Source: Burkholderiales bacterium (lineage in GTDB: Bacteria > Pseudomonadota > Gammaproteobacteria > Burkholderiales > Burkholderiaceae_C). From it: 47,562 nucleotides of DNA. The stretch lies in the NCBI GenBank assembly GCA_947462065.1, contig CANHNO010000001.1, forward strand, positions 1 through 47,562, in the 5' to 3' direction. Under the pieces are notes generated by a model. That model was not told the origin of the DNA, searched no databases, and saw nothing but the letters and a program-made list of their open reading frames with translations. Position 1 is the first letter of the stretch; each line of letters opens with the position of its first letter. Position numbers and translations under genes: made by a program. Of the stretch, positions 6,879 through 43,526 are shown piece after piece.

Positions 6879-7624
6879 TGACGCCTGCACCGCCGTCGAT
6901 CGCTGCTGCGGCCTTGCCGCAGGCCTTGATCGACCATGGCCACGCGGTGCTGGCACCGGAGGCCTTGCGCACGCTGATCGACATCGACGCCGCCCCGCTG
7001 ATGGCGCTGGTACCGAGCTGGTCCGACCTGCCACCTGACGCCTTCCTGCGTGACGGCGGCCGCTACCGGCGCCGCCGCCATTCTTGCTTCATCGTCGACG
7101 GCCCCCGGGTGCAGCAGGTGCCTCACCGGCCGCATTGGCAGCCGCTCGAATACAACGCGCTGCACGGCGGGCTCGAACGCATGTTCGACCCGATGAAGAC
7201 GGACATCACCGCCCAGCCGGCGTGGGTGGCACTGCTGCGCGGCTTGTCCGCGGTGTGCTCGCAGATCAAGGGCGCGCAGCCGTGGTTCGTGGAAGCGCAC
7301 CAGTTCCGCATCGACACCACTGACGGCATCGGCCGGCCAACACCGGAGGGCGCGCACCGCGATGGGGTTGATTTCGTCGTCGTCGCGCTGGTCGATCGCC
7401 GAGGCGTGAAAGGCGGCGAAACGCGCGTCTTCGACGCCGACGGGCCGACCGGCATCCGCTTCACGATGAGCGAGCCGTGGACGTTGCTGATGCTCGACGA
7501 CGCGCGGGTGATCCACGAGACCACGCCGATCCAGCCCCTGGAACCCGGCCGGCTGGACGGCCACCGCGACACGCTGGTGCTGACCTTCCGACAGGGTGGA
7601 TTTCAGGGGCCGGGCAGCGCTTGA
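6878..7624 (+). CDS. 2OG-Fe dioxygenase family protein
   Basis: About 248 aa with PEGAHRDGVDF (HxD iron ligands). The architecture fits the family I remember as PF10014. The ATG at 6878 overlaps the upstream TGA by 1 nt. Confidence 0.65.
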   Translation: MTPAPPSIAAAALPQALIDHGHAVLAPEALRTLIDIDAAPLMALVPSWSDLPPDAFLRDGGRYRRRRHSCFIVDGPRVQQVPHRPHWQPLEYNALHGGLERMFDPMKTDITAQPAWVALLRGLSAVCSQIKGAQPWFVEAHQFRIDTTDGIGRPTPEGAHRDGVDFVVVALVDRRGVKGGETRVFDADGPTGIRFTMSEPWTLLMLDDARVIHETTPIQPLEPGRLDGHRDTLVLTFRQGGFQGPGSA

Positions 7625-7637
7625 TACTGCCGCGGGA

Positions 7638-8417
7638 TCAGACCAGCCGGATGTCAGCCACCGCGTTGCTGCCGAAATCGTCGCGCGCCAGGTAGGCGAG
7701 GACACGGCGGGCCGTCTCTTCGGCACTCACCAGCTGGCCTTGTGCATGCAGTTGCTCGAAGTGCGCCTTGTCGGGGAAGCCCGCCTTGGCAGCGGCGCGT
7801 AATTGCGTCTGCAAGTCGGTATCGATGACGCCCGGCGCCAGCGACACGATGCGCGCTGCGTGGCTTTTGTCGCCTGCGGTCTCGGCGCGGTGCGCTTCGT
7901 CGAGCGCCACTACCCGCGAGTAGTGGTCCATGCCGGCCTTGGCTGCTCCGTAGATCGCGCTGCCCGCCATCGCCCGGCGGCCCAGGCCTGACGAGATGTT
8001 CAGCACACGACGATCGGCACGCCAGCCACCGGTTGCGCGAAGGAACGCGGCCGTCAGCAGGATGGTCGCTTCCAAGCCCAGGCGCAGCGCACTGGCCAGC
8101 TCGACGGAGGTGCTGCCGTCTGACGGGCCGACGGTCGCGATCACGCCGGCGTTGTTGATCAGTACCGCTTTGTCGAAGCGGTGCGCATCGAATTGGCGCA
8201 ACCATGCATCGACCTCGTCGGCCACGGTGATGCTGTCGGCCAGATCGCGCGGCCATTCCTCGAGCTGTGCCTGCGAGGCTGCGGCCCGTGTGGCCAGTGT
8301 CGGATGACGTCCTCGCGAAAGGCAGAGCATCACCGTGCCGGCATTCAGTAACTGCTCAGCCATCGCGGCGCCCAGGCCGCGCGAGGCGCCAGTGAGGATG
8401 ACGAGGCGTTGGGACAT
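7638..8417 (-). CDS. SDR family oxidoreductase
   Basis: TGASRGLG (Rossmann motif) and YGAAKAG (YxxxK). Confidence 0.85.
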   Translation of the reverse strand: MSQRLVILTGASRGLGAAMAEQLLNAGTVMLCLSRGRHPTLATRAAASQAQLEEWPRDLADSITVADEVDAWLRQFDAHRFDKAVLINNAGVIATVGPSDGSTSVELASALRLGLEATILLTAAFLRATGGWRADRRVLNISSGLGRRAMAGSAIYGAAKAGMDHYSRVVALDEAHRAETAGDKSHAARIVSLAPGVIDTDLQTQLRAAAKAGFPDKAHFEQLHAQGQLVSAEETARRVLAYLARDDFGSNAVADIRLV

Positions 8418-14065: not shown

Positions 14066-14233
14066 CGATCCCCCGAGCCATCGCCCACACAAGTCCGCCA
14101 GAGGAACGGGCGGAAGTGCCCAAAACCGCACGCTCGGCTGGCGCAGAAGAAACGTCCTGATACGACTGCCGCACACCAGCCCAGGCACCGGCGCAACAAT
14201 TGGTCGTTGCTACTTGTTGGTGTCAACCAACCG

Positions 14234-14923
14234 ATGTCCATTCCCCGCCCGCCGGTCAAGACGCAGCTCGGAGTCGACGAGTTGCGCACCCGCACGCACG
14301 GCCTGAATCAGCGCCATCGGACCATGCTGTTCCTGGTGGATGGCTTGCGCCCGCTCAGCGAGGTGCTGGCGCTCGGGCTGCAAGCGGGTGCCCGAACGAC
14401 GCACTTTGCCGATCTGGTGCACCTGGGCATGGTCGATGTGGCGCTCGACCCCTCTGCCACTGCGTCACCTTCGGTGGACGCTGGCGACAGCGGTGGCAAT
14501 ACGCTGTCGGGCGTGCTCGCGGTGGACCTGGAAGCCCCCGTCAGGGTGCCGAAGTTCACGACCGAAGACTCCTCGCGCATGCCGCTGAAGCGCGCCGAGG
14601 GCAGCGAGGCCGTGGCCTACGCGCAGCGCCGCGCGCTCGCCAGGTCCGAGCAGGAAGATCTGCACCAGGAGGTGCGCGAGCTGTTGATCGACACCTTGCG
14701 AATCGACGCGCCGCTGTTCGCCGCCGTCACGCTGGTGCGGGTGCGCCGCGCGCACACGACTCGCGAGCTGATCAACCTGGTGTGGGAGATCGAGCGCCAC
14801 CTCGTTGCATCAAGGAAAAGCCAGGCCGAGATGCAGACGCTTCATCGCGCCCGCGAACTGCTCGGCATGGGCAACACACAGGTCAGCACCGACTCGCCGA
14901 CCGGCTTCGACGACAGCCGGTGA
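14234..14923 (+). CDS. hypothetical protein
   Basis: GC3-biased ORF with no family recognised. ATG 14234 preferred over the TTG at 14207. Confidence 0.5.
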   Translation: MSIPRPPVKTQLGVDELRTRTHGLNQRHRTMLFLVDGLRPLSEVLALGLQAGARTTHFADLVHLGMVDVALDPSATASPSVDAGDSGGNTLSGVLAVDLEAPVRVPKFTTEDSSRMPLKRAEGSEAVAYAQRRALARSEQEDLHQEVRELLIDTLRIDAPLFAAVTLVRVRRAHTTRELINLVWEIERHLVASRKSQAEMQTLHRARELLGMGNTQVSTDSPTGFDDSR

Positions 14924-15018: not shown

Positions 15019-16881
15019 TCACCAGCGTGACAAGTCGGAGTCGGCCGATTCGATCGCCACACCAACACGCTGAGCCTTCGCCTTGTGTTTTGCCCTGGCG
15101 GCGGCCGAGGCCACCTCTTCAGCCCGGCTGAACACCCCCGGGCGAACAGGTACCGCACCAATCGACAGCGTGGTGAAGTCGAAGAATCGCATCACGCCAT
15201 GCCGGTCTTCGGCATCGATGCCGCCTCTTTGGAGCGCCTCCTCGTCAAACAAGGAAAGCGCCTTTTCATTGAACATCGCCACGATGGCCTCGCAGCGGTC
15301 CATCCAGTCATCGCTCTGGAACAGCACGACGAAATCGTCGCCGCCGACGTGCCCGATGAAATCTCGACGCGGGTCGCAATGTGACGCCAGCGTTCGGGCC
15401 ACCAGCCGGATCATCTCGTCGCCGCGCCAATAGCCGTAATGGTCGTTGTAGGGCTTGAAGTCGTTCAAGTCGCAGTAGCAGGCGACGAACTCGCCACCGG
15501 ATGCCAGCAGCCGATCAATGTGTTCGCTGATCGGAATGTTGCCCGGCAAGAAGGTGAGCGGGTTGGCGTGGCGTGCGGCTTCCATGCGCACCTCGGTCAC
15601 GACCCGAACCAGTTGTTCCCCCGTGCCCAGGCCGAAGTAGCGACCGCCCTCTGTGACGATGAAGCCCTCGTTGAGATAGCGCTGGTCCGAAGACGTCAAA
15701 ACAGCAGTCAACGCCTCCAGGCCGGTGAACTTGTCCAGCAACAGTGGGGTGGTGTTGGCAAACACCAGGCATGGCTTGCGGCCGTAAACCTCCCTGAAAT
15801 AGGGCTTCGCATAGCGGTCGACGAAGGACTGGCGATTCAGCAGGCCGATGGGCTTGCCGTCATCGACCAGCGCGATGGAACGCAAGGTGGGGTCATTGTT
15901 GAAGGCCTGCGCGATGTCTTCGTTGGTGGCGTCCGACCCGAATGGCGGCACATGGACCGAAAGGCGCTGCACGGTGAAGTCGGACCCTGCTGCGCGCGTC
16001 AGCTCGGGCAAGACGGCGATCTTCACGTTGGTGAAGGTCTCGGCAGCAGCGTTCAAGACCGTCATGGCCGGCACAGGGCTGGGCCGTCCCAGGAAATAGC
16101 CTTGCCCGAAATCGATGCCGAGATCTCGCACGATCTGCAGTTCGGCCTCGGTCTCGATCCCTTCGGCGATCAGCGAGGTACCGAAGGTTTCAGCCAGGCG
16201 CATCAGTCCCCTGAGCGTTTGCACCTTGACCGCCTCGTTGTGCACGTTGCGGACAAAGTACTTGTCGATCTTGACGTACTCTGGAAGGAACTCGGCCCAC
16301 AGCCGCAGGCTGGATCGGCCGTCACCAAAATCGTCCAGTGCGAAGCGCATCCCCATGGCGTGCAGTTCGGACCCGACCTGGATCAAGCGTGACATGTCAG
16401 TGACGCGATCGTGCTCGGTGATCTCGATGACCAATGCTGAAGGCGCGATGCCCAGATCCTGCAGCGACTGCATCATCCCCGAGAGCGAGAACTGGTCCAC
16501 CATCGCGACCAGGGTCTGCGCGCTGAGATTGACGAACAACCTTTTGTCTTGCGCCCGACTCGCCCATGAACGCAAGCCCTCAACGATGCAGGCTTGCTCC
16601 AGTCGGAGCGTCAGTTCTTCAGAGCGCGCCGCCTCGAACAAGGCGTCCGGGAAGTGCAGTGGCGAGTCGAGAGGGCCGCGGATCAGGCTTTCGTGGCCCA
16701 TGACCTTGCCGGTCTTCAACTCGACGATCGGCTGGTAGTAGGCCTGCAACGCACGCCGCGCCAGAACTTGCGCAACGGTTTGGACGTTGAGAGCCTCGTC
16801 GACGCTTCGCCGCATGGCTTGCAGCGCCGCTGTGGACAGTGGGGCATTCACAGTGAAAACTCCTCTTGGTGCACCCTGCAA
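15019..16881 (-). CDS. EAL - CBS pair - degenerate GGDEF (GGDDF) c-di-GMP signalling protein
   Basis: EAL-domain motifs YYQPIV, ESLIRG, EITE, DDFGDG, KIDK, EGIETE, QGYF. Central CBS-like repeats. C-terminal NPLTFLPGN...GGDDFVVLF. Confidence 0.88.
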   Translation of the reverse strand: MQGAPRGVFTVNAPLSTAALQAMRRSVDEALNVQTVAQVLARRALQAYYQPIVELKTGKVMGHESLIRGPLDSPLHFPDALFEAARSEELTLRLEQACIVEGLRSWASRAQDKRLFVNLSAQTLVAMVDQFSLSGMMQSLQDLGIAPSALVIEITEHDRVTDMSRLIQVGSELHAMGMRFALDDFGDGRSSLRLWAEFLPEYVKIDKYFVRNVHNEAVKVQTLRGLMRLAETFGTSLIAEGIETEAELQIVRDLGIDFGQGYFLGRPSPVPAMTVLNAAAETFTNVKIAVLPELTRAAGSDFTVQRLSVHVPPFGSDATNEDIAQAFNNDPTLRSIALVDDGKPIGLLNRQSFVDRYAKPYFREVYGRKPCLVFANTTPLLLDKFTGLEALTAVLTSSDQRYLNEGFIVTEGGRYFGLGTGEQLVRVVTEVRMEAARHANPLTFLPGNIPISEHIDRLLASGGEFVACYCDLNDFKPYNDHYGYWRGDEMIRLVARTLASHCDPRRDFIGHVGGDDFVVLFQSDDWMDRCEAIVAMFNEKALSLFDEEALQRGGIDAEDRHGVMRFFDFTTLSIGAVPVRPGVFSRAEEVASAAARAKHKAKAQRVGVAIESADSDLSRW

Positions 16882-16946: not shown

Positions 16947-17315
16947 CTAGACGCCGACCAGTTTCTTGAACGAGCCGATCACCGCCGCGCCGTTGAAAGG
17001 TTTGACGATCCAGCCCTTCACGCCGGCAGCCTTGCCGCGTTCCTTCATCGAGGGCGAGTTCTCGGTGGTGAGCATGACGATGTTCACTGTCGAGTTGTTC
17101 AGCTCGCTGCGCACCTTCTCTGCCATCGTCAGGCCGTCCATGTTGGGCATGTTGACGTCGCAGACGATGAGCTTGAGCGACGAGTCGGCCTTGACCTTGC
17201 CGAGGCCGTCGCGGCCGTCCACTGCATAGGCCACGTCCAGCCCATTCTTCTTGAGGAACTCGCCGACCTCGGTTCTTACGGTGCTTGAGTCGTCGACAAC
17301 CAGTACCTGTGCCAT
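16947..17315 (-). CDS. CheY-like single-domain response regulator
   Basis: 122 aa with VVDDS, acceptor CDVNMP, LTTE and VKPF. Start at ATG 17315. Confidence 0.9.
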   Translation of the reverse strand: MAQVLVVDDSSTVRTEVGEFLKKNGLDVAYAVDGRDGLGKVKADSSLKLIVCDVNMPNMDGLTMAEKVRSELNNSTVNIVMLTTENSPSMKERGKAAGVKGWIVKPFNGAAVIGSFKKLVGV

Positions 17316-17335
17316 TTGATGTACTCCTTTTGGGG

Positions 17336-18310
17336 TTAGAAAAACTCGATCTCGCCTGTTTCCACAAGGGAATCCACTGACACTTGGTTCTCGTGGAAAT
17401 GTTCCGGCGACCAGTTCAGGTTGAAGACGAAGCGCTGCTGGATGATCAACGGTGGCAGGCTGTCGTCTTGCGGATCGGTCAAGGTGCAACGGAAGCAAAG
17501 TTGCGGGATGCCCGTGCCAAACGAGATGTAGCGGTGCAGGTGGTTGATGATCAGCGGCACCTGGGACCGATGTGAATCGATCGCCTGCACCGTGCTGAAG
17601 CGGTTGCGGAACTGTCCCCACACCAGATTGGTCAATTCGCCGAGGATCACATTCAGCGTGCGAAAGTCTTCTGCTTCGTCAGCGAGCAGGTGGGTCTTGC
17701 CCGCGCGAACGAACTGCTGCAGCGATGCCTCCTCGGCCTGCAGCGACATGTAGCCGCGGCACCAGTTGCTGTCGACCGGGATCAGCGAGAAGAGCTCGCC
17801 GAAGATGAGCCGGTCGCGCACGATGTAGGGTGTGTCGATGTGGACGGCGGTCCCCGGGAATTCGCTCATCAGCGCTGCCGCCGTCATCTCGATGATGCCG
17901 CGCACCATCTCCTGCGGAAAGACCGTGGCGAAGATCGCTTCCTCGACCTTGGGCCCGAGTTCGTCGATGTCGGCCAGGGTGAAGACGGTGGCGAACAGGG
18001 ACACGTCAGCGGGGGTCAATGCCGGCAGGACGACTTCTTGCTCTCGGCGGAAGAATATTGGCAGTTCAGGCCGGGCGGCATGAACCTGCCGCGCCAGCAC
18101 CAGGCCAGCAGTCGGATCGTCACCGAGCCGCTCTGACATCCAGATACCACCCAGGTCGACATTCGTTCGCAGCACCGACAGGATGTTGTTGCGTCCGACG
18201 CGCAGACCTTGCAAACGGTGCGCGTCACAGAAGCGGCGGATGTCTTCGGTCGCCTCGGTGTCGGTGTCGAGCACGAGCACCTTGCTGATGGGGAATTGAT
18301 CGTTGTTCAT
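17336..18310 (-). CDS. pseudo-receiver / CheX-like fusion protein
   Basis: The N-terminal ~120 aa has a REC-like pattern (VLVLDTD...PIFF) but no obvious acceptor Asp. The C-terminal half carries the CheC/CheX-type GELTNLVWG (E-x2-N) motif. Confidence 0.6.
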   Translation of the reverse strand: MNNDQFPISKVLVLDTDTEATEDIRRFCDAHRLQGLRVGRNNILSVLRTNVDLGGIWMSERLGDDPTAGLVLARQVHAARPELPIFFRREQEVVLPALTPADVSLFATVFTLADIDELGPKVEEAIFATVFPQEMVRGIIEMTAAALMSEFPGTAVHIDTPYIVRDRLIFGELFSLIPVDSNWCRGYMSLQAEEASLQQFVRAGKTHLLADEAEDFRTLNVILGELTNLVWGQFRNRFSTVQAIDSHRSQVPLIINHLHRYISFGTGIPQLCFRCTLTDPQDDSLPPLIIQQRFVFNLNWSPEHFHENQVSVDSLVETGEIEFF

Positions 18311-18341
18311 GGTGTGGGATGGGTGGTCGTTTGTGTTGTGG

Positions 18342-18896
18342 TCAGAACATTTCGAGCTCGCCGCAGACCTCGACCTCTGCTTCGGCCGTGGCTTCGAAAT
18401 CGAGCCTGTCGTAGGCGCACACGGCCAGGGAGCCGTGGAACCGGGTGTTGCCGTTCAGCGTCAGGCGCGCGTGGGAGCAGTGGCCGTGTTGCAGCAGATG
18501 CAGGTGTGCCAGGCTCTTGCAGTCGAGCACGTACGGCGTGGACATGCCCACGTGCGGAAACGTCCGTCCCAGTCCGCGATTGAGCGCGCCGCAAGCCATG
18601 TTGCCGCACTCGTTGATGGCATCGTTGAAGGCTTGCCCGGACATCTGATCGAGCGAGACACCGTGAAGGCGAGCGAAGTGTTCGCGCGTTGCGGCGTCGG
18701 GCTCGAAGTGGATCCACATCATCAGCCGGAATCGGTACGACGACACCACCAGCATCACCGCAAGGCTCTCGGCGATGTCGTCCATGCTGGCCACCGGAAC
18801 GATGTCGGTGACGCTGTCGTCCGGCCCGGTAAAGGCGCTGCGCAGGCCCTGGTGAAGCAGCTGGTCGAATCCCTGACGGGCGGAGCTGCTGATCAT
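18342..18896 (-). CDS. CheX-like chemotaxis phosphatase family protein
   Basis: 184 aa with AINECGNMACGALNR (E-x2-N motif). ATGA overlap with the upstream gene. Confidence 0.6.
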   Translation of the reverse strand: MISSSARQGFDQLLHQGLRSAFTGPDDSVTDIVPVASMDDIAESLAVMLVVSSYRFRLMMWIHFEPDAATREHFARLHGVSLDQMSGQAFNDAINECGNMACGALNRGLGRTFPHVGMSTPYVLDCKSLAHLHLLQHGHCSHARLTLNGNTRFHGSLAVCAYDRLDFEATAEAEVEVCGELEMF

Positions 18897-19642
18897 GGCT
18901 GCGCACCCTGCTGCGGTGCAAGGGTCTCCATCGCATTGCGCTGCGCCAGATCCAGCCCGACCAGCGCACCCATGATCATCTTGCCGCCAGCCTGCAGGTC
19001 CTGGAAGGTCGCCGTGGTGATCAAGTCGTTTTCGTACAGGCTCTTGCGGTAGTCGGTCGAGAGGGTCTCTGCGCGCGCGGCCAGACTGCGCATTTCTTCG
19101 GCGACGACGGCAAACCCACGACCCTCCGCACCAGCGCGCGCTGCCTCGATGGATGCGTTGAGGGTCACGATCGTCATCTGTCGAACGATGAGCGTGAAGT
19201 CATCGTTCTTGCGGTGCATGCCGCCGTTGTGGGTGAGCACGCCATCCATCGCCGCGTGCCAGCGCTCGAAGGTCTTGTCGACCTGCATCAGCTCCTGCAA
19301 GCCGCGCGCAAGTTCGCCGATCTGCGCCTGCGCCTGCCGCGATGCGCTGTTGGCGGCGGCGACCTCCCGTCGAGTCTCTGCCGTGAGCCTGGCGTGCTCG
19401 GCGGCGGCGCTTCGGGCCGCGGACTCCAGGTCCCGGCAGCGATCCTCGGCCGCTTCGCGCTCCCAGTGAGCCTGCTCGAGTTGCGCGTGCAGTCGTTCGA
19501 TCTCTGCCGACAACGCGGCCTTCTCGGCCACCGCTTCGGGTGAAGGATGGCGCTGCCAGGGCCAGCGGATGTTGCGCGCATCAGGAGGCGTCGCCAGGCC
19601 TGCGGCCTGTGGCAGAGCTTCCGCCATTGCGGTGTCAGACAT
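18893..19642 (-). CDS. soluble minimal MCP-like protein (signalling-tip domain only)
   Basis: 249 aa with no TM segment. N-terminal coiled coil, then TLNASIEAARAGAEGRGFAVVAEEMRSLA, the invariant MCP hairpin tip. Confidence 0.75.
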   Translation of the reverse strand: MSDTAMAEALPQAAGLATPPDARNIRWPWQRHPSPEAVAEKAALSAEIERLHAQLEQAHWEREAAEDRCRDLESAARSAAAEHARLTAETRREVAAANSASRQAQAQIGELARGLQELMQVDKTFERWHAAMDGVLTHNGGMHRKNDDFTLIVRQMTIVTLNASIEAARAGAEGRGFAVVAEEMRSLAARAETLSTDYRKSLYENDLITTATFQDLQAGGKMIMGALVGLDLAQRNAMETLAPQQGAQP

Positions 19643-22001
19643 GTGACACCGCCGTCTGGTGCGTTTCGACCAGACGCACGGCCAACTCGGCTGGCAGCGT
19701 CACGACGGTCCTGAAGGTCACGAAGCCTTCGGCGTTCTCGCCGTCTTGCAGCTCCAGCGCCACCTGCCCACCCTCGCTTTCGACGAACGCCTTCACGGCG
19801 TCCAGGCCGACGCCACGCCCGGAGACTTCCGTCACCTGCTCTGCGGTGGAGAAGCCAGGGCGGAAGATCAACGAAGCCACCGACTGGGGGGACAGCGATT
19901 CGCCAGCGCTCACCAGGCCTGCCGCCTCCGCCTTGTCGCGGATGCGCTTGAGGTTGAGGCCGCGGCCATCGTCTTGCAGCACCAGGCGCAGACCTGCGAC
20001 GTCCAGTGCCGCACTCAGCGTGAGGTGACCGGCGGCGGCCTTGCCCGCGGCCTGGCGTACTTCTGGCGTTTCGATGCCGTGATCCAGCGCATTGCGCAAG
20101 AGATGCATGTAGGTGTTGCGCAGGAGGCCGGCGACCTGGCTGCGAACGACCACGCCGTTGTCATTGATGGTGACCACTGGCTGGACCTTACCCAACTCGC
20201 GCGCCAGCGGCGGCAACGAGTTCAGCACGCCCGACAGCGCGTCCTCGATGCGCTCGGTACCGATGCGCTTGACCGTCTGCCGTGCCTCGATCACAGCGTT
20301 CTGCAGTGACTTGCCGTCATGCAGATCTGCCTGATCCAGCGTCTGGATGAGACGCTGCACCTGCTCCCTGGCAACCATGAAGAACTTGTCGACGCTGCCT
20401 CGGCGACCCGGACCGCTCCGACCCAGCTTCTCCTGATTGAGCGTGTCGTACTCGGTGACGACGACGCGCGCTTCGTTCAGTTCGGTGTTCAGGCGCTCTT
20501 TGTCCCACTCGGCTGTGCCCTTGCGCAGTGCGTCGTAGGTTTCCTCGATGCGGTGCACCACATCAGCCAACTGCAGCAGGCCATGCGTGCGTGCATTGCC
20601 CTTCACGGTGTGCATGTTGCGGAACAGCAGGCCCACCACATCGCTGCGTGATGCATCGTCGGCGGCTGCCGCACCCCGGGAAATCAGGCTGGCGTTCTGC
20701 TCGACGAACTGGACCGCGCCGTCGATGAAGGTCTGGAATTTCTCCTGAGGCACGGCGAGGATTTCGCCGATCAGGGCCAGTTCGCGGCGTCCGGCCTCGG
20801 CGGCGCGCGCCAGGGCTCGCAATTCGGTGACATCGCGCAGGCACAACAGCAATCGTGTGACGTTGCCGGCTCCGTCGGTCATCGGCGCCCAGTGCAGGTC
20901 AAGCACCTTCACCGCGCCGCTGGGCAGGGTCTTCTCGATCTCGGTGGGCAGCAGGTGCGAGTTGAACTCGAAGTTCATCTCGTCCTCGCCGATGCATGCG
21001 GCGATGGACGCGTCGGCCTGAGAAAGCGCATCGGCGCCCAGACCGCTGCTTTCGAAGAGGACGGCGTTGACGTTCTGGCCGGCAAAGCCGTCGGCCTCGA
21101 GGATGGACTTGAGCTGTTCCGAGTATTCAGGGTGGATGCGTCCGCCCGCCTCGATGGTCAGGATGCCCTGCGGGATCGAGTGCAGCATGGCGTGGATGTC
21201 TGCCGTCTTCTGCCGCACCTGCTCGGCACTCTCCTGGATCTTCTCGATCATCTTGTTGAAGGCCACAACGGAGCGACCGACCTCGTCCATGCGCTTGACC
21301 GGCAAGCGCTGGCTGAAGTCCTGGCTGGTCGCGATGGCGGTCATCTTGTTCTCCATGGCGCCGATGGGCAGCACCACCTGCCGGTACAGCAGAAAGCCCA
21401 GCAAGCCCAGACCCAGCGCGGCGCCGACGCTGACCATGGTCAGCGTGGTCTGCGTGTCCTCGAGCTTGGCGTTCAGTGACGCGATGGCGGTATCGCGGCT
21501 GCGGGTCTTTTCAACCTGGAGCGCGGTCATGGCCTCGCCCAACGTGCGCAGGTACTGGTCGACATTGGCGGCGAGCGTGACTTCGGCCAGCTCCTGCTGC
21601 CCTTCGAGCTTGAACTTGGCGGTCTCGTCGATGGCGGCGAAGTAGTTCTTCATGTCGTCCAGCGCAAACCGCACCAGCCCGCGCTGGGCTTCGTTGTCTG
21701 CCGAGGCCGACTGGGCCTCGAGTGCGCCTTGCAGTTCGGACTTGCGCTGGGAAAGCGCTTTATGACCCTCCTCGACGCTGGCGTTGTCGACGGCCGAAAC
21801 CATGCCGAGCGCCGTGATCTGCACGTCCTTCAGCTGGGTCATCAGGGAGATGGCCTTGGCGGAGCTGGGCACCACGCCCTCTGTGACCGATTTCACGTCG
21901 ATGGCGCCAGAGCGAGCCTGGAAAACGGCGAATCCTCCAACGAAGCCCAATGCCACGAAGGCCACGAGCACGAGAAAGATGATGCGTTGGCGAATATTCA
22001 C
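19635..22001 (-). CDS. membrane sensor kinase: periplasmic helical domain - HAMP - PAS-like - Hpt - CheA-type ATPase, no CheW-like domain
   Basis: Two TM segments flank a ~165-aa periplasmic helical domain. HAMP (PIGAMENKMTAIA...). PAS-like (SIPQGILTIEAGG). Hpt (LFRNMHTVKGNAR). CheA-type N, G1 and G2 boxes (LLRNALDHGIE, DDGRGL, SGRGVGLDAV). The protein ends about 40 aa after G2. Confidence 0.8.
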   Translation of the reverse strand: MNIRQRIIFLVLVAFVALGFVGGFAVFQARSGAIDVKSVTEGVVPSSAKAISLMTQLKDVQITALGMVSAVDNASVEEGHKALSQRKSELQGALEAQSASADNEAQRGLVRFALDDMKNYFAAIDETAKFKLEGQQELAEVTLAANVDQYLRTLGEAMTALQVEKTRSRDTAIASLNAKLEDTQTTLTMVSVGAALGLGLLGFLLYRQVVLPIGAMENKMTAIATSQDFSQRLPVKRMDEVGRSVVAFNKMIEKIQESAEQVRQKTADIHAMLHSIPQGILTIEAGGRIHPEYSEQLKSILEADGFAGQNVNAVLFESSGLGADALSQADASIAACIGEDEMNFEFNSHLLPTEIEKTLPSGAVKVLDLHWAPMTDGAGNVTRLLLCLRDVTELRALARAAEAGRRELALIGEILAVPQEKFQTFIDGAVQFVEQNASLISRGAAAADDASRSDVVGLLFRNMHTVKGNARTHGLLQLADVVHRIEETYDALRKGTAEWDKERLNTELNEARVVVTEYDTLNQEKLGRSGPGRRGSVDKFFMVAREQVQRLIQTLDQADLHDGKSLQNAVIEARQTVKRIGTERIEDALSGVLNSLPPLARELGKVQPVVTINDNGVVVRSQVAGLLRNTYMHLLRNALDHGIETPEVRQAAGKAAAGHLTLSAALDVAGLRLVLQDDGRGLNLKRIRDKAEAAGLVSAGESLSPQSVASLIFRPGFSTAEQVTEVSGRGVGLDAVKAFVESEGGQVALELQDGENAEGFVTFRTVVTLPAELAVRLVETHQTAVSHV

Positions 22002-22556
22002 TCAGTACTCCTTCAGTAAAAACAACGTACGTCCTGCGGCTACGGCAGAGTCGTCTGGTACCGCCATGCGGACTGCGATGAGCGCACACATCCGAACAGT
22101 GATCACGGCGACGTCTTGGCCAGGAATCGCTAAAGCGCCACTCTTTTCGACCGACGAGGCGGGGGCTTTAGAGCATCTGAGGTGATGTCACGAAAAATTC
22201 ATATTCGGGTGAAGGGCTCCCGTGTCGCGTACCGCTCGCGCCAGCCCGCATACCCTGTTCTGATGCGGTATCGAGCGAGATGTGACCAAAGGCGGTGGGG
22301 ACTCGCCCACGCTGCGTGAGTCAAGGCGTTGAATTCAAGGCGAATTCGACGATCAGCTGCTGCGTTTCAGCGCATTGAATTTGCGCGACATCCGGCTTCC
22401 ATCGCGCTGATTCGGGCCGCCGCGACCGGCCGACGCAACGGTCGGTTTCCTCGCCGTCAGGCGAGGACCTTCATGCCGGGCTCAGCCTTTGAATTGATCT
22501 GGGGTCGAGCCGGGTGACTGCCACCTGGCACGGGTTGCGCACTTGCGAGCGGTGCG

Positions 22557-24280: not shown

Positions 24281-24490
24281 CAGTTTGTCCTTTTCATGCA
24301 GATGCCGCAGATGTGCGGGCTGAAACTGTCTGTGCAAGGTGCATTGTGCTTGGCGCCGGTGCGGCCCGTCCGGCGTGTGGTCGTATTGACCGAAAAATCG
24401 GAAAAAGCGCCCGATCACTCGCACAATGAGTCCATCTATCCCGGACGCCGCATCCTGCGGCCTCAGGCCTCGCTGGAGGAGCTGCGCTCG

Positions 24491-25924
24491 ATGACACACG
24501 CCTTGATCGTCGATGACGATGTGGGTTCGGCGTCCACCCTGAAGGCGCTGATCATGGCCGAGCACTGCACGGTCGCGGTGGTGCACAACCTGCGCGATGC
24601 CCGACGCCAGATCGCCCTGCAGCAACCCGAGCTGGTGCTGCTCGACCTGCAGCTGCCCGACGGCAACGGCATGGACCTGTTCGCCGAGCCCGAGTTGCTG
24701 GCCAATTCAGAGGTGGTGCTGATCACCGGCCACGCCTCGCTGGAGACCTCGATCCAGGCGCTGCGACTGGGTGCTGCTGACTACCTTGTGAAACCCATCA
24801 ACCTGCGTCAGCTGCAGGGTGTGCTGTCGCGGGTGACGAAGCCGGCGCTGCTCAAGGCCGAGGTCGAGACGCTGGCCGCGCAGGTGGCGCCGAGTGGCCA
24901 CTTCGGCGCGCTGTGGGGCCGCGCGCCGGCGATGCTGCGGCTCTATGAGCAGATCGCCCGGGTGGCGTTGACCAGCGTGACGGTGTTCATCACCGGCGAA
25001 AGCGGCAGCGGCAAGGAGGTCGTCGCGCAGACGGTGCACGACCTGAGCCGCCGCCGCAAGCAGCCGTTTCTGGCTGTCAATTGCGGTGCGATCTCGCCCA
25101 ACCTCATCGAAAGCGAGATCTTCGGCCACGAGAAAGGCAGCTTCACCGGTGCCGATCGCCAGCACCTGGGATTTTTCGAGCGTGCCAGCGGCGGCACGCT
25201 GTTCCTCGACGAGATCACCGAAATGCCGATGGAGCTGCAGGTCAAGCTGCTGCGCGTGCTGGAGACGGGCTGCTTCATGCGCGTGGGCTCGACACAGATG
25301 CAGGCGGCCGATGTGCGGGTGCTGGCCGCCACCAACCGCCGTCCCGAGCAAGCGGTCGCCACCGGCAAGCTGCGCGAAGACCTGCTGTACCGGCTGAATG
25401 TGTTCCCGATCGAGCTGCCGCCGCTGCGCGAGCGGCTCAGCGACGTCGGTCTGCTGGCGCAGCATTTCCTGAACGCTTTTGGCGTCCAGGAAGGGCAGGC
25501 CAAGCATTTCACTTCAGCCGCACTGGATCGGCTCCTGCAATATCGCTGGCCCGGCAATGTGCGCGAGCTGCGCAATGCGGTGCAGCGCGCCTATGTGATG
25601 GCTGCAGGCGATGTGATCGACCCGCAATGGTTGCCTCAGCCTTCGCCGCTGACCGAGCCGACTGTTGGCGCTCAGGTGGCGGCAATTCCGTCGGCCATCC
25701 GGCGAACTGCTTCGGCGTCCGACGACGCATTCGAGCAGGAGTCGGTCACGCTGTCCATCGGCACCTCGCTGGCGACGGCCGAGCGCACGCTGATCCTAGC
25801 CACGCTGCGCCACCACCACCACCAGAAGGAGCGCACGGCGGCGGCGCTGGGCATCAGCCTGAAGACGCTTTACAACCGTTTGAAGGAGTACGCCGCCGAC
25901 GGCCTGGACCATGCGGCGCATTGA
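24491..25924 (+). CDS. sigma-54-dependent response regulator (NtrC family: REC - AAA+ - Fis HTH)
   Basis: REC domain (IVDDD...[11 protein letters not shown]), Walker [15 protein letters not shown] loop, GGTLFLDEI, and a C-terminal [18 protein letters not shown]. Confidence 0.92.
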
Positions 25925-28336: not shown

Positions 28337-29854
28337 TCACGGGTGCGCGGCAGGGCCTTCAATGGCGCCATGCAGTGCGGCGACCAGCTCCGCCGGCTGA
28401 CACGGTTTGTCCAGCACGATGAAGTCTTCCCCGGCCAGGGTTTTTGCCGCGTAACCGCTGATCAGTACCACGGGCAGATCGGGGCAGGCGTCTCGCAGCA
28501 CGCGCGCCAGGCCCAGACCGTCCATGCCACCGGGCATCTTGATGTCCGACAGCACCACATCGAAAGCGGGTTCGTCGGCGATCAGGCGCAACGCGCCTTG
28601 CGGATCGACGACGCGACTCACCTCGCAGCCTAGCCGACTGAGCAGGGCCTCGGTCACTTCGGCAAGGTCGTCGTTGTCTTCCACCAGCAGCAATCGCGCG
28701 CCTTCGATCGAGGGTGCGGGGCTGTCGGGTTCCGCTGCGCCCAGGGGCGCCATGGCGTCCTCGCAGGCGGGTAGCAGCAGGGACACGGTGGTGCCCAACC
28801 CCTCGGTGCTGGTCAGCCGCGCGGTGCCGCCCGCCTGCACGCAGAAGCCCATCACCTGGGCCAGACTCAGTCCGGTGCCCTGGCCTGCTTCCTTGGTGGT
28901 GAAGAAGGGCTCGAAAACACGCCCGGCCACCTCGTCGTCGATGCCAAGGCCATCGTCGCTGACGGTGATCAGCACATAGTCGCCGTCCGGCAGGTCGGGC
29001 ACCTCATCGTCGTGCGCGCGTCTTGCCTGCAGGCGCAGGTGCCCGCCCAGGGGCATGGCATCGCGCGCATTCAGGCTCAGGTTGGTCAGCGCGAGCTCGA
29101 GTTCATGGGCGTCCACCCGGACCAGGGGTGTGCCCGGCGCCACCGCCACCGTGACCTCGGTGCGCGCGCCCGTCACCGTTTGCAGCAGATCCCGCAGCTC
29201 ATGCAGTGCGCCCGCCAGATCAATCGGCCTGGCGCATCCCGGCTGCTGCGCTGCGAAGCGCAGCAGCTGCTTTGTCAGACGGCTGCCGACGGCCACGGCC
29301 CGCAAGGTGGCGGCCAACGGTGCCTGCAGTTCGGCAGCGGCGGACTGGCGCTGCATCAGGTGGGCGCTGTTGCTGATCACGCCCAGCAGGTTGTTGAAAT
29401 CGTGCGCGACGCCGCCGGTCAGGCGTCCCAGCGCCTCGATGTGCTGGCTGCGCGAAATGCGCTGCTCGGCCTCGCGCGTTCGTGTCAAAGCTGCGGCGAC
29501 CTCGAGCTCGAGCTTGCTGCGGGAACTGCGCAATCCGTCGGCGGCCTGGGTCAGTGCCGCAGCGACTTCGTTGCATTCCGCGATTCCGGTGGCCTGTGTT
29601 GCCACCAACTCGCCGGCCTGCATGCGGTCTGCGGCCTGCTTCAGAGAGTGCAGCGGTGCGGTGATACGGCCTGCCATCCAGAAGGCAGCCCACATCGCCA
29701 GGCCCAGCAACAGCAGCGAACCTGCCGCAAGCTTCTGCACCGATTGCGGGTCGGCGGCGTCGTTGTCGATGACGAACCAAAGGACCGCCACCACGCCCGG
29801 CACCCAGACCGACATGACGAGCAGCAACAGGCGGGAGCGGATGGAAAGGGTCAT
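28337..29854 (-). CDS. hybrid sensor histidine kinase / response regulator
   Basis: Two TM segments with a short loop, HAMP-like linker, H-box GGVAHDFNNLL, HATPase (DDGLGI, GQGTGLSLAQV) and a C-terminal REC domain (LLLVEDNDD...SDIKMPGGMDG). Confidence 0.9.
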   Translation of the reverse strand: MTLSIRSRLLLLVMSVWVPGVVAVLWFVIDNDAADPQSVQKLAAGSLLLLGLAMWAAFWMAGRITAPLHSLKQAADRMQAGELVATQATGIAECNEVAAALTQAADGLRSSRSKLELEVAAALTRTREAEQRISRSQHIEALGRLTGGVAHDFNNLLGVISNSAHLMQRQSAAAELQAPLAATLRAVAVGSRLTKQLLRFAAQQPGCARPIDLAGALHELRDLLQTVTGARTEVTVAVAPGTPLVRVDAHELELALTNLSLNARDAMPLGGHLRLQARRAHDDEVPDLPDGDYVLITVSDDGLGIDDEVAGRVFEPFFTTKEAGQGTGLSLAQVMGFCVQAGGTARLTSTEGLGTTVSLLLPACEDAMAPLGAAEPDSPAPSIEGARLLLVEDNDDLAEVTEALLSRLGCEVSRVVDPQGALRLIADEPAFDVVLSDIKMPGGMDGLGLARVLRDACPDLPVVLISGYAAKTLAGEDFIVLDKPCQPAELVAALHGAIEGPAAHP

Positions 29855-31653: not shown

Positions 31654-33312
31654 TCAGGCGGGTTGCTGCGGGCTGGCCTCGACCGTCACGGGCGCGAGAG
31701 GCAGCGTGACGACGAATTCGCTGCCCATGCCCTTGCCGGCGCTGTGTGCCGTGACGGTGCCGCCATGCGCTTTCACCAGTTCTTCCACCACCGTCAGGCC
31801 CAGCCCCAGCCCGTTGGTGTTGAACTTGTGGGCAGCCTCGTCCTGCATGAACGGCTCGAAGATGTGCGGGAGGGCTCGCTCATGGATGCCAATGCCGTTG
31901 TCGCGCACCGTCAGCACCACCGCGTCGACGCTGCGGCTCATCGACAACACGATCTCGCCCGAAATCGGCGTGTACTTCGATGCGTTGTCCAGCAGGTTGC
32001 GCAGCACCTGCGCCAGCCGTACCGGGTCGCAGTTCAACGCCAACTCGCCCGGCTGCAGATGCACCAGGAAGTGTTGCAGCCGGGTGTCGATCGCCGGACG
32101 GCTGGCCTCGACCACGTCGTTGATGAGTGTGATCAGATTCACCTCACTGAGCTCCAGCCGCAGCTTGCTGCCTTGCGCACGCGACACATCGAGCAGGTCA
32201 CTGACCAGCCGTGACATCTGTGCCGCCTGTCGCTCGATCACTGCATTTATCCGTGGCAGTGGAGGTGGAATGTCTTCGCTGGCGATCAGCGCGGATGCGT
32301 TGCGGATCGCCGTCAATGGCGAACGCAACTCGTGAACCGCTTGTGCCATTCGCAGGTTGTGCCGCTTCAGTGCTTTCTCGGCAGCGTCCTGCAGCCGTTT
32401 TGCATCGAGTGCGCCGAGCAGCAACTTCTCGTTGGCCTCCTGGAGCAATTGGTGCCGCTCCACATGCGCGTTGATGGCCTCCTGGGAACTGGTCACGGGC
32501 AGGCGCAGCGACTCGGGAAAGGCGACTTGCAATGCGTGGCCGGAAACAGGATCGGAAGCCTTGGACACCGCATAGCCCAAGCCCCGCCGCTTTGCCTCGT
32601 ACATGGCGGCGTCTGCCGCGTCGATCAGCGTGGTCACATCTTCACCATCGTCGGGGTACACGCTGATGCCGATGCTGGCGCTCAAGCGCAGCACATGTCC
32701 GGCGAGTTGCGTCGGCACAGCGAGCGCGGCATTGATCTTGTCGGCAATGGCGCCGGCATCGCTGGCGTGCGCCACATCGTCGAGCAGGATCAGGAATTCA
32801 TCGCCCCCAAAGCGACTGACGGTGTCCGAGGCGCGAACGACCGAAACCATGCAACGGGCGGCCAGTTGCAAAACCTGATCGCCGAAGTGGTGTCCCAGCG
32901 CGTCGTTGACCTGCTTGAAGCCATTCAGGTCGACAAACAGCACTGCCATGCGGCGATTGCGACGTCGCCCCCCGGCGATGGCCTGGGTGAAACGGTCGAG
33001 GAACAGCATCCGGTTGGGCAGCTGTGTCAGTGCGTCGAGCGCGGCCACACGAGACATTTCCAACATCGAACGCATCGCCTCGTCGGATTCGACCTTCGAC
33101 TGCATCAGCGCCAGCACCAGCTGCTCGTTGGCTTCCAGCAGATCGGAGGCCTTGCCGGAGTCGGCCACAGGGCTTCGCGCCTCAGACCTGTCATCCCGCA
33201 GGGACTGCAGTGCCCTGCGCGCCCTGTCTACCTCGGTGCGCAATTCGAGCAACTCAAGCCTGGCGCGGACCAACTCTGCGTTGTCGGCGTCGCTGTGACC
33301 CGGATCGTTCAT
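31654..33312 (-). CDS. GGDEF diguanylate cyclase fused to a HisKA-HATPase histidine kinase
   Basis: N-terminal coiled coil. An apparently intact GGDEF domain (RASD I-site-like RxxD five residues before RFGGDEF). H-box HELRSPLTAI. N box LLDNASKYT, G boxes DNGIGI and GLGLGL. Confidence 0.88.
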   Translation of the reverse strand: MNDPGHSDADNAELVRARLELLELRTEVDRARRALQSLRDDRSEARSPVADSGKASDLLEANEQLVLALMQSKVESDEAMRSMLEMSRVAALDALTQLPNRMLFLDRFTQAIAGGRRRNRRMAVLFVDLNGFKQVNDALGHHFGDQVLQLAARCMVSVVRASDTVSRFGGDEFLILLDDVAHASDAGAIADKINAALAVPTQLAGHVLRLSASIGISVYPDDGEDVTTLIDAADAAMYEAKRRGLGYAVSKASDPVSGHALQVAFPESLRLPVTSSQEAINAHVERHQLLQEANEKLLLGALDAKRLQDAAEKALKRHNLRMAQAVHELRSPLTAIRNASALIASEDIPPPLPRINAVIERQAAQMSRLVSDLLDVSRAQGSKLRLELSEVNLITLINDVVEASRPAIDTRLQHFLVHLQPGELALNCDPVRLAQVLRNLLDNASKYTPISGEIVLSMSRSVDAVVLTVRDNGIGIHERALPHIFEPFMQDEAAHKFNTNGLGLGLTVVEELVKAHGGTVTAHSAGKGMGSEFVVTLPLAPVTVEASPQQPA

Positions 33313-33335: not shown

Positions 33336-34871
33336 TCAGAGAAGCCCGCGTTCGGGATCGGAGCGAGTCATCGCAGCCACGGTCTTTTGGGTCGGTCGAC
33401 CGCCCAGTAGCCCTTCCTGGTCAACGAGCCTGCTGCCAATGTGAATGCCGTCGCCTTCGATGTGGAACTCGCGCAGTTCGTCGGAATGCGCGCTGGCACG
33501 CACCTTCACCACGGCCATCACGCGACGCAGGCGACTGTCGACCTCGATGTAGCGCTGCACGATGATCGCGTCGGTCATGAACGCGGTGCCATAGGGGCTG
33601 AAGCGCAGGTCGGTGTAGCGGTCCTCGAGCTCGGAGGTCATCAGCATCGTCACGCCGGCCCCGGTCATCGCCTTCACCAGTCGCGACATCGACTCGCGGA
33701 AGTCGTCTCGGAAGGTCGGGGCGACCGACAGCTCGAAGCTGGAGAGCGAATCAATGACGACGCGCGTGGCCTTCAGTCGGCGGATCTCGTCGAGCAGCAG
33801 CATCACGATCTCGTCGATCGACAGATCGGGCGCGCGGCTGTCCACCACGCCGACCTGGCCGCTGGCGATCAGTTCGGTGACCAGCCGGTTGCGCGAGCGG
33901 TTCGGGTGCTGCTCGAACACCGCGATGACGCCGGTCTCGCCGAGGCGCGCGCCTTCGGCGAGGAACGCGGCTGCGAGGATGCTCTTGCCCGAACCGGATG
34001 GTCCGGCGACCAGCAGCGAATAACCCCGTGGCAGTCCGCCGCCCATCATCTCGTCGAGGTGCGGCACCCCCATCGGGACGCGCGAACTCGATGTCGACGC
34101 GGGTGCGGCTGACGGGGCCGCGAGCGCGATCGAGCCGGCAGTGTCCTCGCCCTGTGGTTGCGAGATGGCAGGCGCGAAAACGCGCACGCCGCTCGGGTCG
34201 ATGCGAAAGGTATGCAGCCCGGGCAGCGTGGGCTGGCCGCGCATCTTCATGATCTCCATCTTGCGCACCACCGAATTGCGCATCACGCTCTGACGCATCC
34301 AGATCAGGCCGTCGGCCACAGTGAACACCGGGTTTGCGTCCGTCTCGTCGAAGCACTCTCCGATCAGGAAGGTGGTGGCCTGCCAGCTGGTCATCAGCAT
34401 GCCGAGCTGCTGCACGAACGATTGGAGATTCGTACGTGGATCGGGCGCGGTCTGCTGGGCAGCGTTGGCCAGCACCACCGAGCGGAACGAGTCGACGAAC
34501 ACCAGCGACGGGCCGTGGGTGGTCACTTCTTCGACGATGCGGCGCAGCACACGGTCGAGATCGCCGGCCATGGCCTCCTCGGACAGGTTGATGAAGCGGA
34601 TCGCGCGCGTCACCGCCTCGGTGTCGAAGAAATCGAACTGCTGCTGGTAGCGAAGCATCTTCAGCGGCGGCTCGCCCAGCACGGTGAAGTACAGCGCAGG
34701 TCGTTCGGGCGTTGCCAGCGCAAACATGATCTGGTGAGCGAGCGTGGTCTTGCCGCAGCCGGGCTGCCCGGCTATCAGGTTGAACGAGAACTCCGGCAGC
34801 CCACCGCCGAGCACCTCGTCCAGCCCCGGCACGCCGGTGCGCAGGCGGTTGATGGTCACTTTGGTGTTCAT
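33336..34871 (-). CDS. KaiC-like double RecA-domain ATPase
   Basis: 511 aa. TGVPGLDEVLGGGLP with Walker A GQPGCGKTT in domain 1. GVPHLDEMMGGGLP with GPSGSGKS in domain 2. Start at ATG 34871. Confidence 0.85.
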   Translation of the reverse strand: MNTKVTINRLRTGVPGLDEVLGGGLPEFSFNLIAGQPGCGKTTLAHQIMFALATPERPALYFTVLGEPPLKMLRYQQQFDFFDTEAVTRAIRFINLSEEAMAGDLDRVLRRIVEEVTTHGPSLVFVDSFRSVVLANAAQQTAPDPRTNLQSFVQQLGMLMTSWQATTFLIGECFDETDANPVFTVADGLIWMRQSVMRNSVVRKMEIMKMRGQPTLPGLHTFRIDPSGVRVFAPAISQPQGEDTAGSIALAAPSAAPASTSSSRVPMGVPHLDEMMGGGLPRGYSLLVAGPSGSGKSILAAAFLAEGARLGETGVIAVFEQHPNRSRNRLVTELIASGQVGVVDSRAPDLSIDEIVMLLLDEIRRLKATRVVIDSLSSFELSVAPTFRDDFRESMSRLVKAMTGAGVTMLMTSELEDRYTDLRFSPYGTAFMTDAIIVQRYIEVDSRLRRVMAVVKVRASAHSDELREFHIEGDGIHIGSRLVDQEGLLGGRPTQKTVAAMTRSDPERGLL

Positions 34872-35311
34872 GGCTTGGGATCCTTGGCAGCGGAGTCGCT
34901 CGACGTGGCGACCCACACAGGGCGTATCAGTCGCTCGGTCAACGAGGGCCCGACCACGCTGGACAACAGATCGTGGAAGGTGGTGAAAAGCGTGGTGGCA
35001 CCAGCCATGGCAGCAACGGCGCTCTGCTGGCAAAGCAGTGGGGTCAATTCGGAGAAGTCGGCGACGGCTGGTGCGACGTCATCAGCCACGCTCAGCCACT
35101 GGTGGTCTTGCGCGGTGATGTGGACGCTGCGCTGGTAGAGCGCAGCCAAACCGCGTTTGCCGATGATCGGCACCAACACCGCATCAATTCCGCCCCAGGT
35201 GACGAGGACGGCGTCTGCAATCTGTGCGCTATCGGCGCTCGGCGGGACCCTGCTCGCGAAATGGGTTGCTACCGAAACGCCCAACGGGTTTTCCGTGGAC
35301 ATCGTCAGCAA
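34868..35311 (-). CDS. hypothetical protein, first gene of the KaiC-like operon
   Basis: 147 aa (or 144 aa from ATG 35302) with GC3-biased codons. ATGA overlap with the KaiC-like start. No family recognised. Confidence 0.55.
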   Translation of the reverse strand: MLTMSTENPLGVSVATHFASRVPPSADSAQIADAVLVTWGGIDAVLVPIIGKRGLAALYQRSVHITAQDHQWLSVADDVAPAVADFSELTPLLCQQSAVAAMAGATTLFTTFHDLLSSVVGPSLTERLIRPVWVATSSDSAAKDPKP

Positions 35312-43488: not shown

Positions 43489-43526
43489 CCGGCACAAATC
43501 GTTTTCATCCGAAGGCGTCAAGCTTC

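Follow-up and report, generated by a model that had tools for sequence, protein, structure and literature searches.

The DNA analyzed here (the window) is a stretch of 47,562 nt (47.5 kb) of the Burkholderiales bacterium contig CANHNO010000001.1 (GCA_947462065.1), and our subject is a five-gene operon on it that is built from chemotaxis parts (Table 1). The operon encodes a CheA-type histidine kinase fused to its own sensor (K788), a sensorless form of a methyl-accepting chemotaxis protein (MCP) that we call a mini-MCP (T249), a stand-alone CheX-type phosphatase (X184), a pseudo-receiver-CheX fusion (RX324) and a CheY-like response regulator (Y122). It is a real, widespread and uncharacterized variant of chemosensory pathway design, firm in its composition and conservation: the catalytic motifs are intact, neither a P5 domain nor CheW is present at the locus, and the operon is conserved both as a unit and in its sub-modules. 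On balance, and with modest confidence, we favor the reading that it forms a self-contained betaproteobacterial module in which chemotaxis parts are wired without CheW or P5, the sensor-kinase signaling to CheY and two differently targeted phosphatases resetting it.

Table 1. Coordinates of the operon genes, of the domains of K788 and of the adjacent downstream gene in the window
Feature	Position	Strand	Basis
K788, sensor-fused CheA-type histidine kinase, 788 aa	19635..22001	-	Pfam, PDB profile
T249, sensorless mini-MCP, 249 aa	18893..19642	-	Pfam, profile, AlphaFold2
X184, stand-alone CheX-type phosphatase, 184 aa	18342..18896	-	Pfam, profile, invariant motif
RX324, pseudo-receiver-CheX fusion, 324 aa	17336..18310	-	Pfam, AlphaFold2, Foldseek
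Y122, CheY-like single-domain response regulator, 122 aa	16947..17315	-	Pfam, NCBIfam
K788 first transmembrane segment, periplasmic four-helix-bundle sensor and second transmembrane segment, residues 1-213	21363..22001	-	hydropathy, Pfam
K788 HAMP, residues 204-257	21231..21392	-	Pfam 30.4 bits, above cut-off
K788 PAS-like cytoplasmic domain, about residues 275-400	20802..21179	-	sub-threshold PAS
K788 P1/Hpt, about residues 420-520, phospho-acceptor His464	20442..20744	-	Pfam Hpt 33.5 bits
K788 P3-like helix and P4 ATP-binding domain, residues 542-775	19677..20378	-	CheA structure alignment
Next gene: EAL, weak CBS-like stretch, GGDEF	15019-16881	-	Pfam

Composition of the operon

All five genes are encoded on the minus strand, and in the order K788, T249, X184, RX324, Y122 the junctions between them measure -8, -4, +31 and +20 nt; the second is the 4-nt overlap of the X184 start with the T249 stop. 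The coordinates of the open reading frames (ORFs) agree exactly with the overlaps of 8 and 4 nt and the gaps of 31 and 20 nt given in an earlier interpretation made from the letters of this DNA (the sequence-only reading). Gene calling based on the GC content of third codon positions (GC3) backs K788, T249, X184 and RX324; it does not back Y122, whose start is an internal ATG inside a 224-aa ORF that falls under the filter.

K788 runs in the order sensor, HAMP, PAS-like domain, P1, a short linker, P3-like helix and P4. Domains were called with Pfam and NCBIfam, and Pfam reports HAMP, Hpt and HATPase_c together with weak matches to 4HB_MCP_1 and PAS. By hydropathy, membrane segments at residues 1-30 and 185-213 lie on either side of the four-helix-bundle sensor; residues 1-161 match 4HB_MCP_1 weakly (E 3e-5), and a precomputed match to PF12729 is found in most homologues. 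In 15 of 19 K788 orthologues PAS matches are present below threshold (best E 5.5e-5), and the same region weakly matches the PAS sensor 3mxq in the PDB. The fold of the kinase was searched with a profile built from 20 homologues against PDB sequences. Positions 422-519 align to the P1 structures of CheA (8c5v_C, 1i5n and 1tqg), and the MHTVKG motif within them (residues 463-468) has H464, K467 and G468 invariant in the 20 homologues. Positions 542-775 match E. coli CheA residues 305-498 with E 3e-50 and positions 23-250 of T. maritima CheA chain 1b3q with E 2e-40; apart from CheA P1 and CheA P3-P4, nothing was matched in this PDB search. The N (633-642), G1 (677-681), F (716-720) and G2 (728-734) boxes are likewise invariant among the 20 homologues. 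K788 is thus placed among the CheA-type (class II) kinases, its phospho-acceptor histidine being carried by an Hpt/P1 domain and not by a DHp helix, with no match to HisKA; P3 and P4 are both present, although P3 aligned only partly and Pfam H-kinase_dim was not detected.

The C-terminus of K788 lies 54 aa past the G2 box, a stretch that corresponds to the normal end of P4, and all 20 aligned homologues terminate at the same point, just past P4. No CheW, P2 or H-kinase_dim match was found in K788 by Pfam even when matches down to E ≤ 1 were admitted. A cryptic CheW/P5 domain is therefore ruled out by Pfam at that threshold, by NCBIfam and by the PDB profile, which ends at P4; since the chain is wholly accounted for, there is no room for a concealed P2 or P5. 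The architecture given in the sequence-only reading (sensor, HAMP, PAS-like domain, Hpt and CheA ATPase, with no P5/CheW domain) stands, and the profile-based annotation of the 788-aa protein that it called for bears out the absence of CheW/P5 and P2; only its estimate of about 40 aa for the tail past G2 has to be corrected. Between P1 and the P3-like helix lies a short, nearly invariant linker, LGRxGPGRRG (residues 526-535, about 20397-20426, minus strand). In canonical CheA this region is taken up by P2 and flexible linkers.

CheW was also sought at the level of the locus, by tblastn with an E. coli CheW query, both in the window and in related loci with 8-kb flanks. These loci are the best 80 of the kinase loci, which were found with two K788-specific peptides and of which at least 568 species genomes were confirmed; all counts of synteny, gene order and CheW in this text refer to the 80 unless stated otherwise. 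Neither the 47.5-kb window nor the 80 loci gave a CheW match with E below 0.7, and "CheW-less" holds for the locus only; canonical chemotaxis genes elsewhere in the host genome may supply a CheW. Pfam found no CheR or CheB in the flanking window genes tested, and ORF clustering gave no conserved extra family in the 80 loci, so that the earlier statement that the locus has no CheW, CheR or CheB is upheld. The described chemosensory classes (F1-F17, ACF and Tfp) are recognized by a CheA with a CheW-like P5, by a CheW encoded with the system and by CheR/CheB methylation adaptation. K788 has no P5 and the locus has neither CheW nor CheR/CheB, and the operon fits none of these classes; the first reading had already set it apart from the classical Che layout.

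T249 keeps the conserved hairpin signaling tip of an MCP with invariant tip residues, and across the family the tip (LNASIEAARAG..GRGFAVVA.EVR.LA) nearly equals the universal MCP consensus. Pfam places MCPsignal at residues 152-194 only (54 bits); a T249 profile covers the N-arm and tip of MCPs but only about 35-50 aa of the C-arm, with E 3e-22 against solved MCP structures. For T249 and RX324 we used AlphaFold2 models whose alignments came from database homologues. The T249 model (predicted local distance difference test, pLDDT, 80) is a hairpin with a helix at 35-173, a turn at 174 and a helix at 175-245, so that an N-arm of 139 aa faces a C-arm of 71 aa. The earlier claim that this protein is essentially only the MCP tip does not hold: a full-length N-arm, the tip and a 71-aa C-arm are present. 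Pfam found no input (ligand-binding) domain and no HAMP in T249, and its model has neither paired methylation helices nor a four-helix bundle; given the unequal arms, the adaptation region has no partner helix. Two invariant motifs, KTFERWH (123-129) and TFQDxQAGGKMI (212-223), are specific to the family and absent from ordinary MCPs. Some 45-50 residues away from the tip they lie opposite one another, at a level that we take to be roughly that of the glycine hinge of E. coli Tsr. An N-terminal hydrophobic anchor is present in 56 of 72 T249 orthologues and has been lost in the clade of the window; the protein is soluble there, as the sequence-only reading had it, but membrane-anchored in most relatives.

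Both X184 and RX324 carry the motif of the CheC/CheX/FliY phosphatases, E-x2-N with a Pro about 22 residues further on, and on this basis they would be phosphatases of phosphorylated CheY. In X184, whose profile matches the CheX structures 6vpw, 3h2d, 3iic and 1squ over the catalytic helix, E96, N99, a GMSTP motif and the downstream Pro, P121, are invariant; E-x2-N is found in 69 of 71 orthologues. The X184 family, which has a conserved N-terminus, is small and distinct (272 clusters at 50% identity among 1.84 billion representatives), and nearly all its listed members are stand-alone proteins of ~180 aa, the remainder being shorter fragments. RX324 matches CheX in Pfam with 33 bits, over the cut-off, and in a profile search against CheX structures with E 1e-6. 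Its model (pLDDT 83, predicted TM-score 0.81) has a (beta-alpha)5 domain and a CheX domain, corresponding to a pseudo-receiver at residues 8-125 and CheX at residues 133-300; Foldseek aligns them to receiver domains (TM 0.77-0.79) and to the CheX structures 3hm4, 3h4y and 3iic (TM about 0.70). E225, N228 and P252 are invariant, and E-x2-N is found in all 44 orthologues. In profile-profile alignment with CheY orthologues, the position of the phospho-acceptor Asp is occupied by S, A, H, Y or G in RX324, and the conserved receiver Thr and Lys are missing as well; the N-terminal domain is for this reason a pseudo-receiver. The assignments of the third gene as CheX-like and of the fourth as a pseudo-receiver-CheX fusion are thus confirmed. 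Of additional note, the two phosphatases share a C-terminal tail: X184 ends with GELEMF and RX324 with GEIEFF, and G[ED]L[ED][LFM]F closes 70 of 71 X and 43 of 44 RX orthologues. By analogy, this GELELF-type tail is probably a docking peptide. The model for this idea is CheZ, whose C-terminal peptide binds CheY.

Y122 is, as had been read from the sequence, a canonical CheY (Response_reg 81.7 bits; best NCBIfam match CheY) with all its receiver active-site residues, D8, D9, D53, T83 and K105, invariant in 30 orthologues. Trp102 occupies the position of E. coli Tyr106. Its orthologues are 69-87% identical, and no other operon protein is as well conserved.

Conservation and gene order

Synteny in the 80 related loci was scored by tblastn with the operon and neighbor proteins of the window, and additional conserved genes were sought by all-against-all clustering of ORFs. 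Nearly all the loci belong to Betaproteobacteria, with a few contigs of metagenome-assembled genomes (MAGs) labeled otherwise; they include Comamonadaceae, Burkholderia, Paraburkholderia, Caballeronia, Ralstonia, Pandoraea and Chromobacterium, as well as Herbaspirillum, Herminiimonas, Rhodocyclaceae, Gallionellales and Methylophilaceae. T249 has a match in 74 loci, Y122 in 73, X184 in 71 and RX324 in 44. The gene set recurs in about 70 of the 80 loci across Betaproteobacteria, which places the arrangement far beyond chance and answers positively the question, raised with the first reading, of whether the set occurs as a unit in other genomes. ORF clustering revealed no further conserved gene family around the operon in the 80 loci; the leftover clusters were antisense ORFs over the same operon genes. 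That the operon is a decayed remnant of a chemotaxis system is ruled out by the invariance of the catalytic motifs in dozens of orthologues and by the uniform gene lengths.

Abbreviating the genes as K, T, X, RX and Y, the order K-T-X-RX-Y is found in 34 loci, K-T-X-Y in 27, K-RX-Y-T-X in 7, and K-Y-T-X and K-RX-Y in 2 each; K stands alone in 6, 2 of which end at a contig end. In complete loci T never occurs without X and always lies directly before it, just as RX always lies directly before Y. The T-to-X junction is the tightest (median -4 nt, with overlap in 41 of 71 loci), and T directly follows K in 61 loci, overlapping it in 12. Among the listed homologues there are no fusion proteins joining K, T or X. 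The observed gene orders thus reduce to a minimal conserved core of kinase, CheY and a single phosphatase.

Kinases without T, X or Y nearby occur in a Hylemonella MAG (L008) and in L009, L020 and L025, which include two Rhodoferax MAGs; one of these four lone-kinase contigs comes from an "Akkermansia" MAG and is probably mis-binned. The lone kinase of the Hylemonella MAG is a second copy, the full operon being present in the same MAG (L003). With such copies, several sensors may signal to a single CheY.

In public records the genes bear generic labels ("HAMP domain-containing protein," "chemotaxis protein," "hypothetical protein," "response regulator"). Frederick et al. 2026 (PMC12887009) reported 3265 betaproteobacterial CheX homologues, typically located after a "4HB MCP domain protein" and an "MCP." This neighborhood is the K788 operon; the kinase was not recognized and the system was not analyzed there. 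Apart from this one sentence on synteny, we found no functional study of the operon in the full-text literature, and it seems unstudied.

A proposed relay and competing explanations

We infer a relay that would work as follows. K788 would reside in the inner membrane and sense by its periplasmic four-helix bundle, and perhaps by its PAS-like domain, with HAMP passing the signal on. Its CheA-type P4 would phosphorylate His464 of its own P1, and the phosphoryl group would then move to Asp53 of Y122. X184 and RX324 would hydrolyze phosphorylated Y122 at their E-x2-N sites, and with two phosphatases doing so the signal would follow the stimulus fast, without methylation-based adaptation. Each phosphatase would have its own targeting or regulatory partner: RX324 the pseudo-receiver fused to it, and X184 the T249 protein, to whose gene its own would be translationally coupled. 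The GELELF-type tails of both would act as docking tails. The minimal set of kinase, CheY and one CheX phosphatase points to a fast phosphorylate-and-reset relay, and the fact that the T and X genes stay paired suggests that T249 partners X184 as a scaffold or regulator, in parallel with the fused pseudo-receiver of RX324.

Several points weigh against this relay. The support for each of its putative steps comes from sequence and models. The Pfam match of X184 to CheX is 22 bits, under the cut-off, and the GELELF tail is a candidate docking peptide with a putative partner. Canonical CheA is controlled through P5, CheW and the receptor tip; control of P3-P4 by a sensor fused upstream of P1 is, to our knowledge, without precedent. 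Finally, the near-universal tip of T249 is easier to explain by contact with canonical partners elsewhere, such as other MCPs, CheW or the P5 of CheA, and if T249 makes such contacts the module is not truly self-contained.

This last point leads to the main rival explanation, in which the operon would be an accessory branch of the canonical array. The T249 tip would enter mixed receptor trimers or CheW rings, with the host supplying CheW, and would bring X184 and perhaps K788 there, while Y122 would be a competitor at the flagellar motor or a sink for phosphate. Besides having a near-perfect MCP consensus across the family, the tip presumably keeps the trimer-contact positions of E. coli Tsr, and in the anchored orthologues the 139-aa N-arm would set it, by an estimate from helix length, at roughly the depth of a 36H receptor tip. 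A published survey has CheX co-occurring with CheZ in Burkholderia, which puts CheX together with canonical chemotaxis genes, and in one Burkholderia RNA-seq study a gene annotated as CheX fell along with flagellar genes, a candidate link to the operon. However, K788 has no P5 and is thus unable to join CheW/P5 rings, the membrane anchor of T249 has been lost in the clade of the window, and two loci retain K-RX-Y without T-X. A hand alignment of Y122 with E. coli CheY shows differences at several FliM-contact positions, e.g., Lys for Ile95. Moreover, 79 regions upstream of the kinase gene showed no sigma-28 promoter motif and no conserved sigma-54 pattern, a negative that argues against membership of the flagellar regulon and is weak, as simple consensus patterns alone were scanned. 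We consider this accessory-branch explanation rather unlikely.

Second among the rivals is a direct coupling of T249 to the kinase: the collar motifs of T249 would bind P3-P4 of K788 in place of CheW and activate or cluster the kinase in CheW-free assemblies. The opposed, invariant KTFERWH and TFQDxQAGGKMI motifs below the tip, which ordinary MCPs lack, could serve as such a surface; T lies directly after K in most loci, in some with overlap, and most T249 orthologues are membrane-anchored, as is the kinase. Against this, T stays with X and not with K in the permuted gene orders, the K-RX-Y loci dispense with T, and the listed homologues include no K-T fusion. Such a coupling seems improbable to us.

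The sequence-only reading had taken the gene next to the operon to suggest a cyclic di-GMP (c-di-GMP), non-motility output. Phosphorylated Y122 would then regulate the adjacent EAL-GGDEF protein, as PdcC does the cyclase PdcA in Burkholderia thailandensis. The EAL-(CBS)-GGDEF gene does lie directly downstream of the operon, and in PdcABC (Wang et al. 2022), as summarized in PMC9899790, a diguanylate cyclase is inhibited by a single-domain regulator that is paired with a CheC/CheX-type phosphatase. In one relative, Azohydromonas australica (L083), a small ORF with a weak PilZ match (7456-7824) precedes the kinase gene by 176 nt. Neither the window nor any of the other 80 loci has this ORF, however, and EAL matches occur in 12 of the 80 loci, weak, scattered and varying in position and strand, at about the background density by a rough estimate. 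Taken with the ORF clustering, these results rule out a conserved c-di-GMP partner. PdcB, considered as a relative of RX324, was rejected too: RX324 gives a single match per Burkholderia replicon searched, always at the K788 operon, and PdcB is for this reason not a detectable relative. The GGDEF signature of the neighbor reads GGDDF, so its cyclase may be inactive. As the EAL-GGDEF neighbor is not conserved, the claimed output is unsupported, and we regard it as very unlikely. Concerning the annotation of this neighbor, a GTG near 16851, after AAGAGGAG, looks a better start than the TTG at 16881.

We therefore return to the CheW-independent relay as the preferred reading. A broader proposal is possible and we put it forward tentatively: that a CheA-type kinase is here controlled by a covalently linked transmembrane sensor, without the receptor-CheW-P5 interface, and that the MCP tip is re-used either as a scaffold or regulator of CheX or as a plug into the array. 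If true, either role of the tip would mean a second, previously unrecognized build of chemosensory-type pathway in several hundred betaproteobacterial species. Some of the genera carrying the operon are tractable and of clinical or agricultural relevance, for example Burkholderia (cepacia complex), Paraburkholderia, Ralstonia, Acidovorax and Chromobacterium. The operon offers a simple system for asking how the CheA core is regulated without P5 and what the invariant MCP tip does outside the classical array, and it also bears on how paired CheX phosphatases are targeted, given the common GELELF tail and the pseudo-receiver.

Surroundings of the operon and comparison with known systems

A promoter and terminator scan across the operon gave nothing useful, and Rfam and tRNA scans had no match in the operon region. 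The 555 nt that separate the start of the kinase gene from the metallophosphoesterase gene (22002-22556) hold no convincing ORF, Rfam match or recognizable promoter; the regulatory region of the operon presumably sits there. For 20 further predicted proteins on either side of the operon in the window, Pfam shows unrelated functions only and no CheW, CheR or CheB; they include a Dus-family enzyme, DUF808, an ABC transporter, a metallophosphoesterase, a Tim44-like protein, an NtrC-type regulator, a hybrid kinase, KaiC and RpoN. The NtrC-type sigma-54 activator (REC, AAA+, HTH_8; 24296-25924, plus strand) and the HAMP-HisKA-HATPase-REC hybrid kinase (28337-29854, minus strand) are located a few kb upstream of the operon, and the RpoN gene is at 35684-37147; we found no link between the operon and any of the three. 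A KaiC-like double-domain ATPase (33336-35033, minus strand) lies directly upstream of a GGDEF-HisKA-HATPase_c protein (31654-33312, minus strand), and the two look like a KaiC-linked signaling pair outside the cyanobacteria. An ORF of 238 aa (14207-14923, plus strand), with good GC3 but without a Pfam match, sits between the Dus and EAL-GGDEF genes, and tandem tRNA-Lys genes (anticodons TTT and CTT; 43413-43602, plus strand) are found where the GC content falls near the end of the window.

With the canonical pathways (MCP-CheW-CheA-CheY; F1-F17, ACF and Tfp of Wuichet and Zhulin) the operon has in common the CheA-type P1, P3 and P4, the MCP tip, a CheY-like receiver and phosphatases of the CheC/CheX type. 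Unlike them, it has a kinase without P5 and P2 and a locus without CheW and without conserved CheR/CheB, and its sensor module is joined to the kinase and not to an MCP signaling domain. T249 in turn lacks the sensor, the HAMP domain and the paired methylation helices of canonical MCPs. According to a survey of CheA architectures, CheA carries no sensor domain, its four core domains always occur together, and it is coupled to chemoreceptors via the CheW-like P5 and CheW. K788 appears to fall outside this description; the operon breaks both of these rules (no sensor domain, and coupling through P5/CheW) and yet is strongly conserved.

The known CheX phosphatases (Thermotoga maritima CheX, CheX-CheY3 of Borrelia burgdorferi and Vibrio vulnificus CheX, 6vpw) share with X184 and RX324 the E-x2-N helix and the downstream Pro, whereas X184 adds a conserved N-terminus and the GELELF-type tail, and RX324 a receiver domain incapable of phosphorylation. 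Among split or atypical kinases, CheA3 and CheA4 of Rhodobacter sphaeroides, like K788, depart from the five-domain layout of CheA. Those proteins retain P5 and act with CheW and cytoplasmic MCP clusters, and we know of no split or atypical CheA of this type that has a transmembrane sensor fused to P1.

The nearest functional analogue of the operon is PdcABC of Burkholderia thailandensis. According to the summary cited above, it has a CheC/CheX-type phosphatase that resets a single-domain regulator outside classical chemotaxis, as X184 and RX324 would do with Y122. In PdcABC as summarized there, the target of the regulator is a diguanylate cyclase, and the genes named do not include a kinase or an MCP-like protein; in the K788 operon, no c-di-GMP enzyme is conserved.

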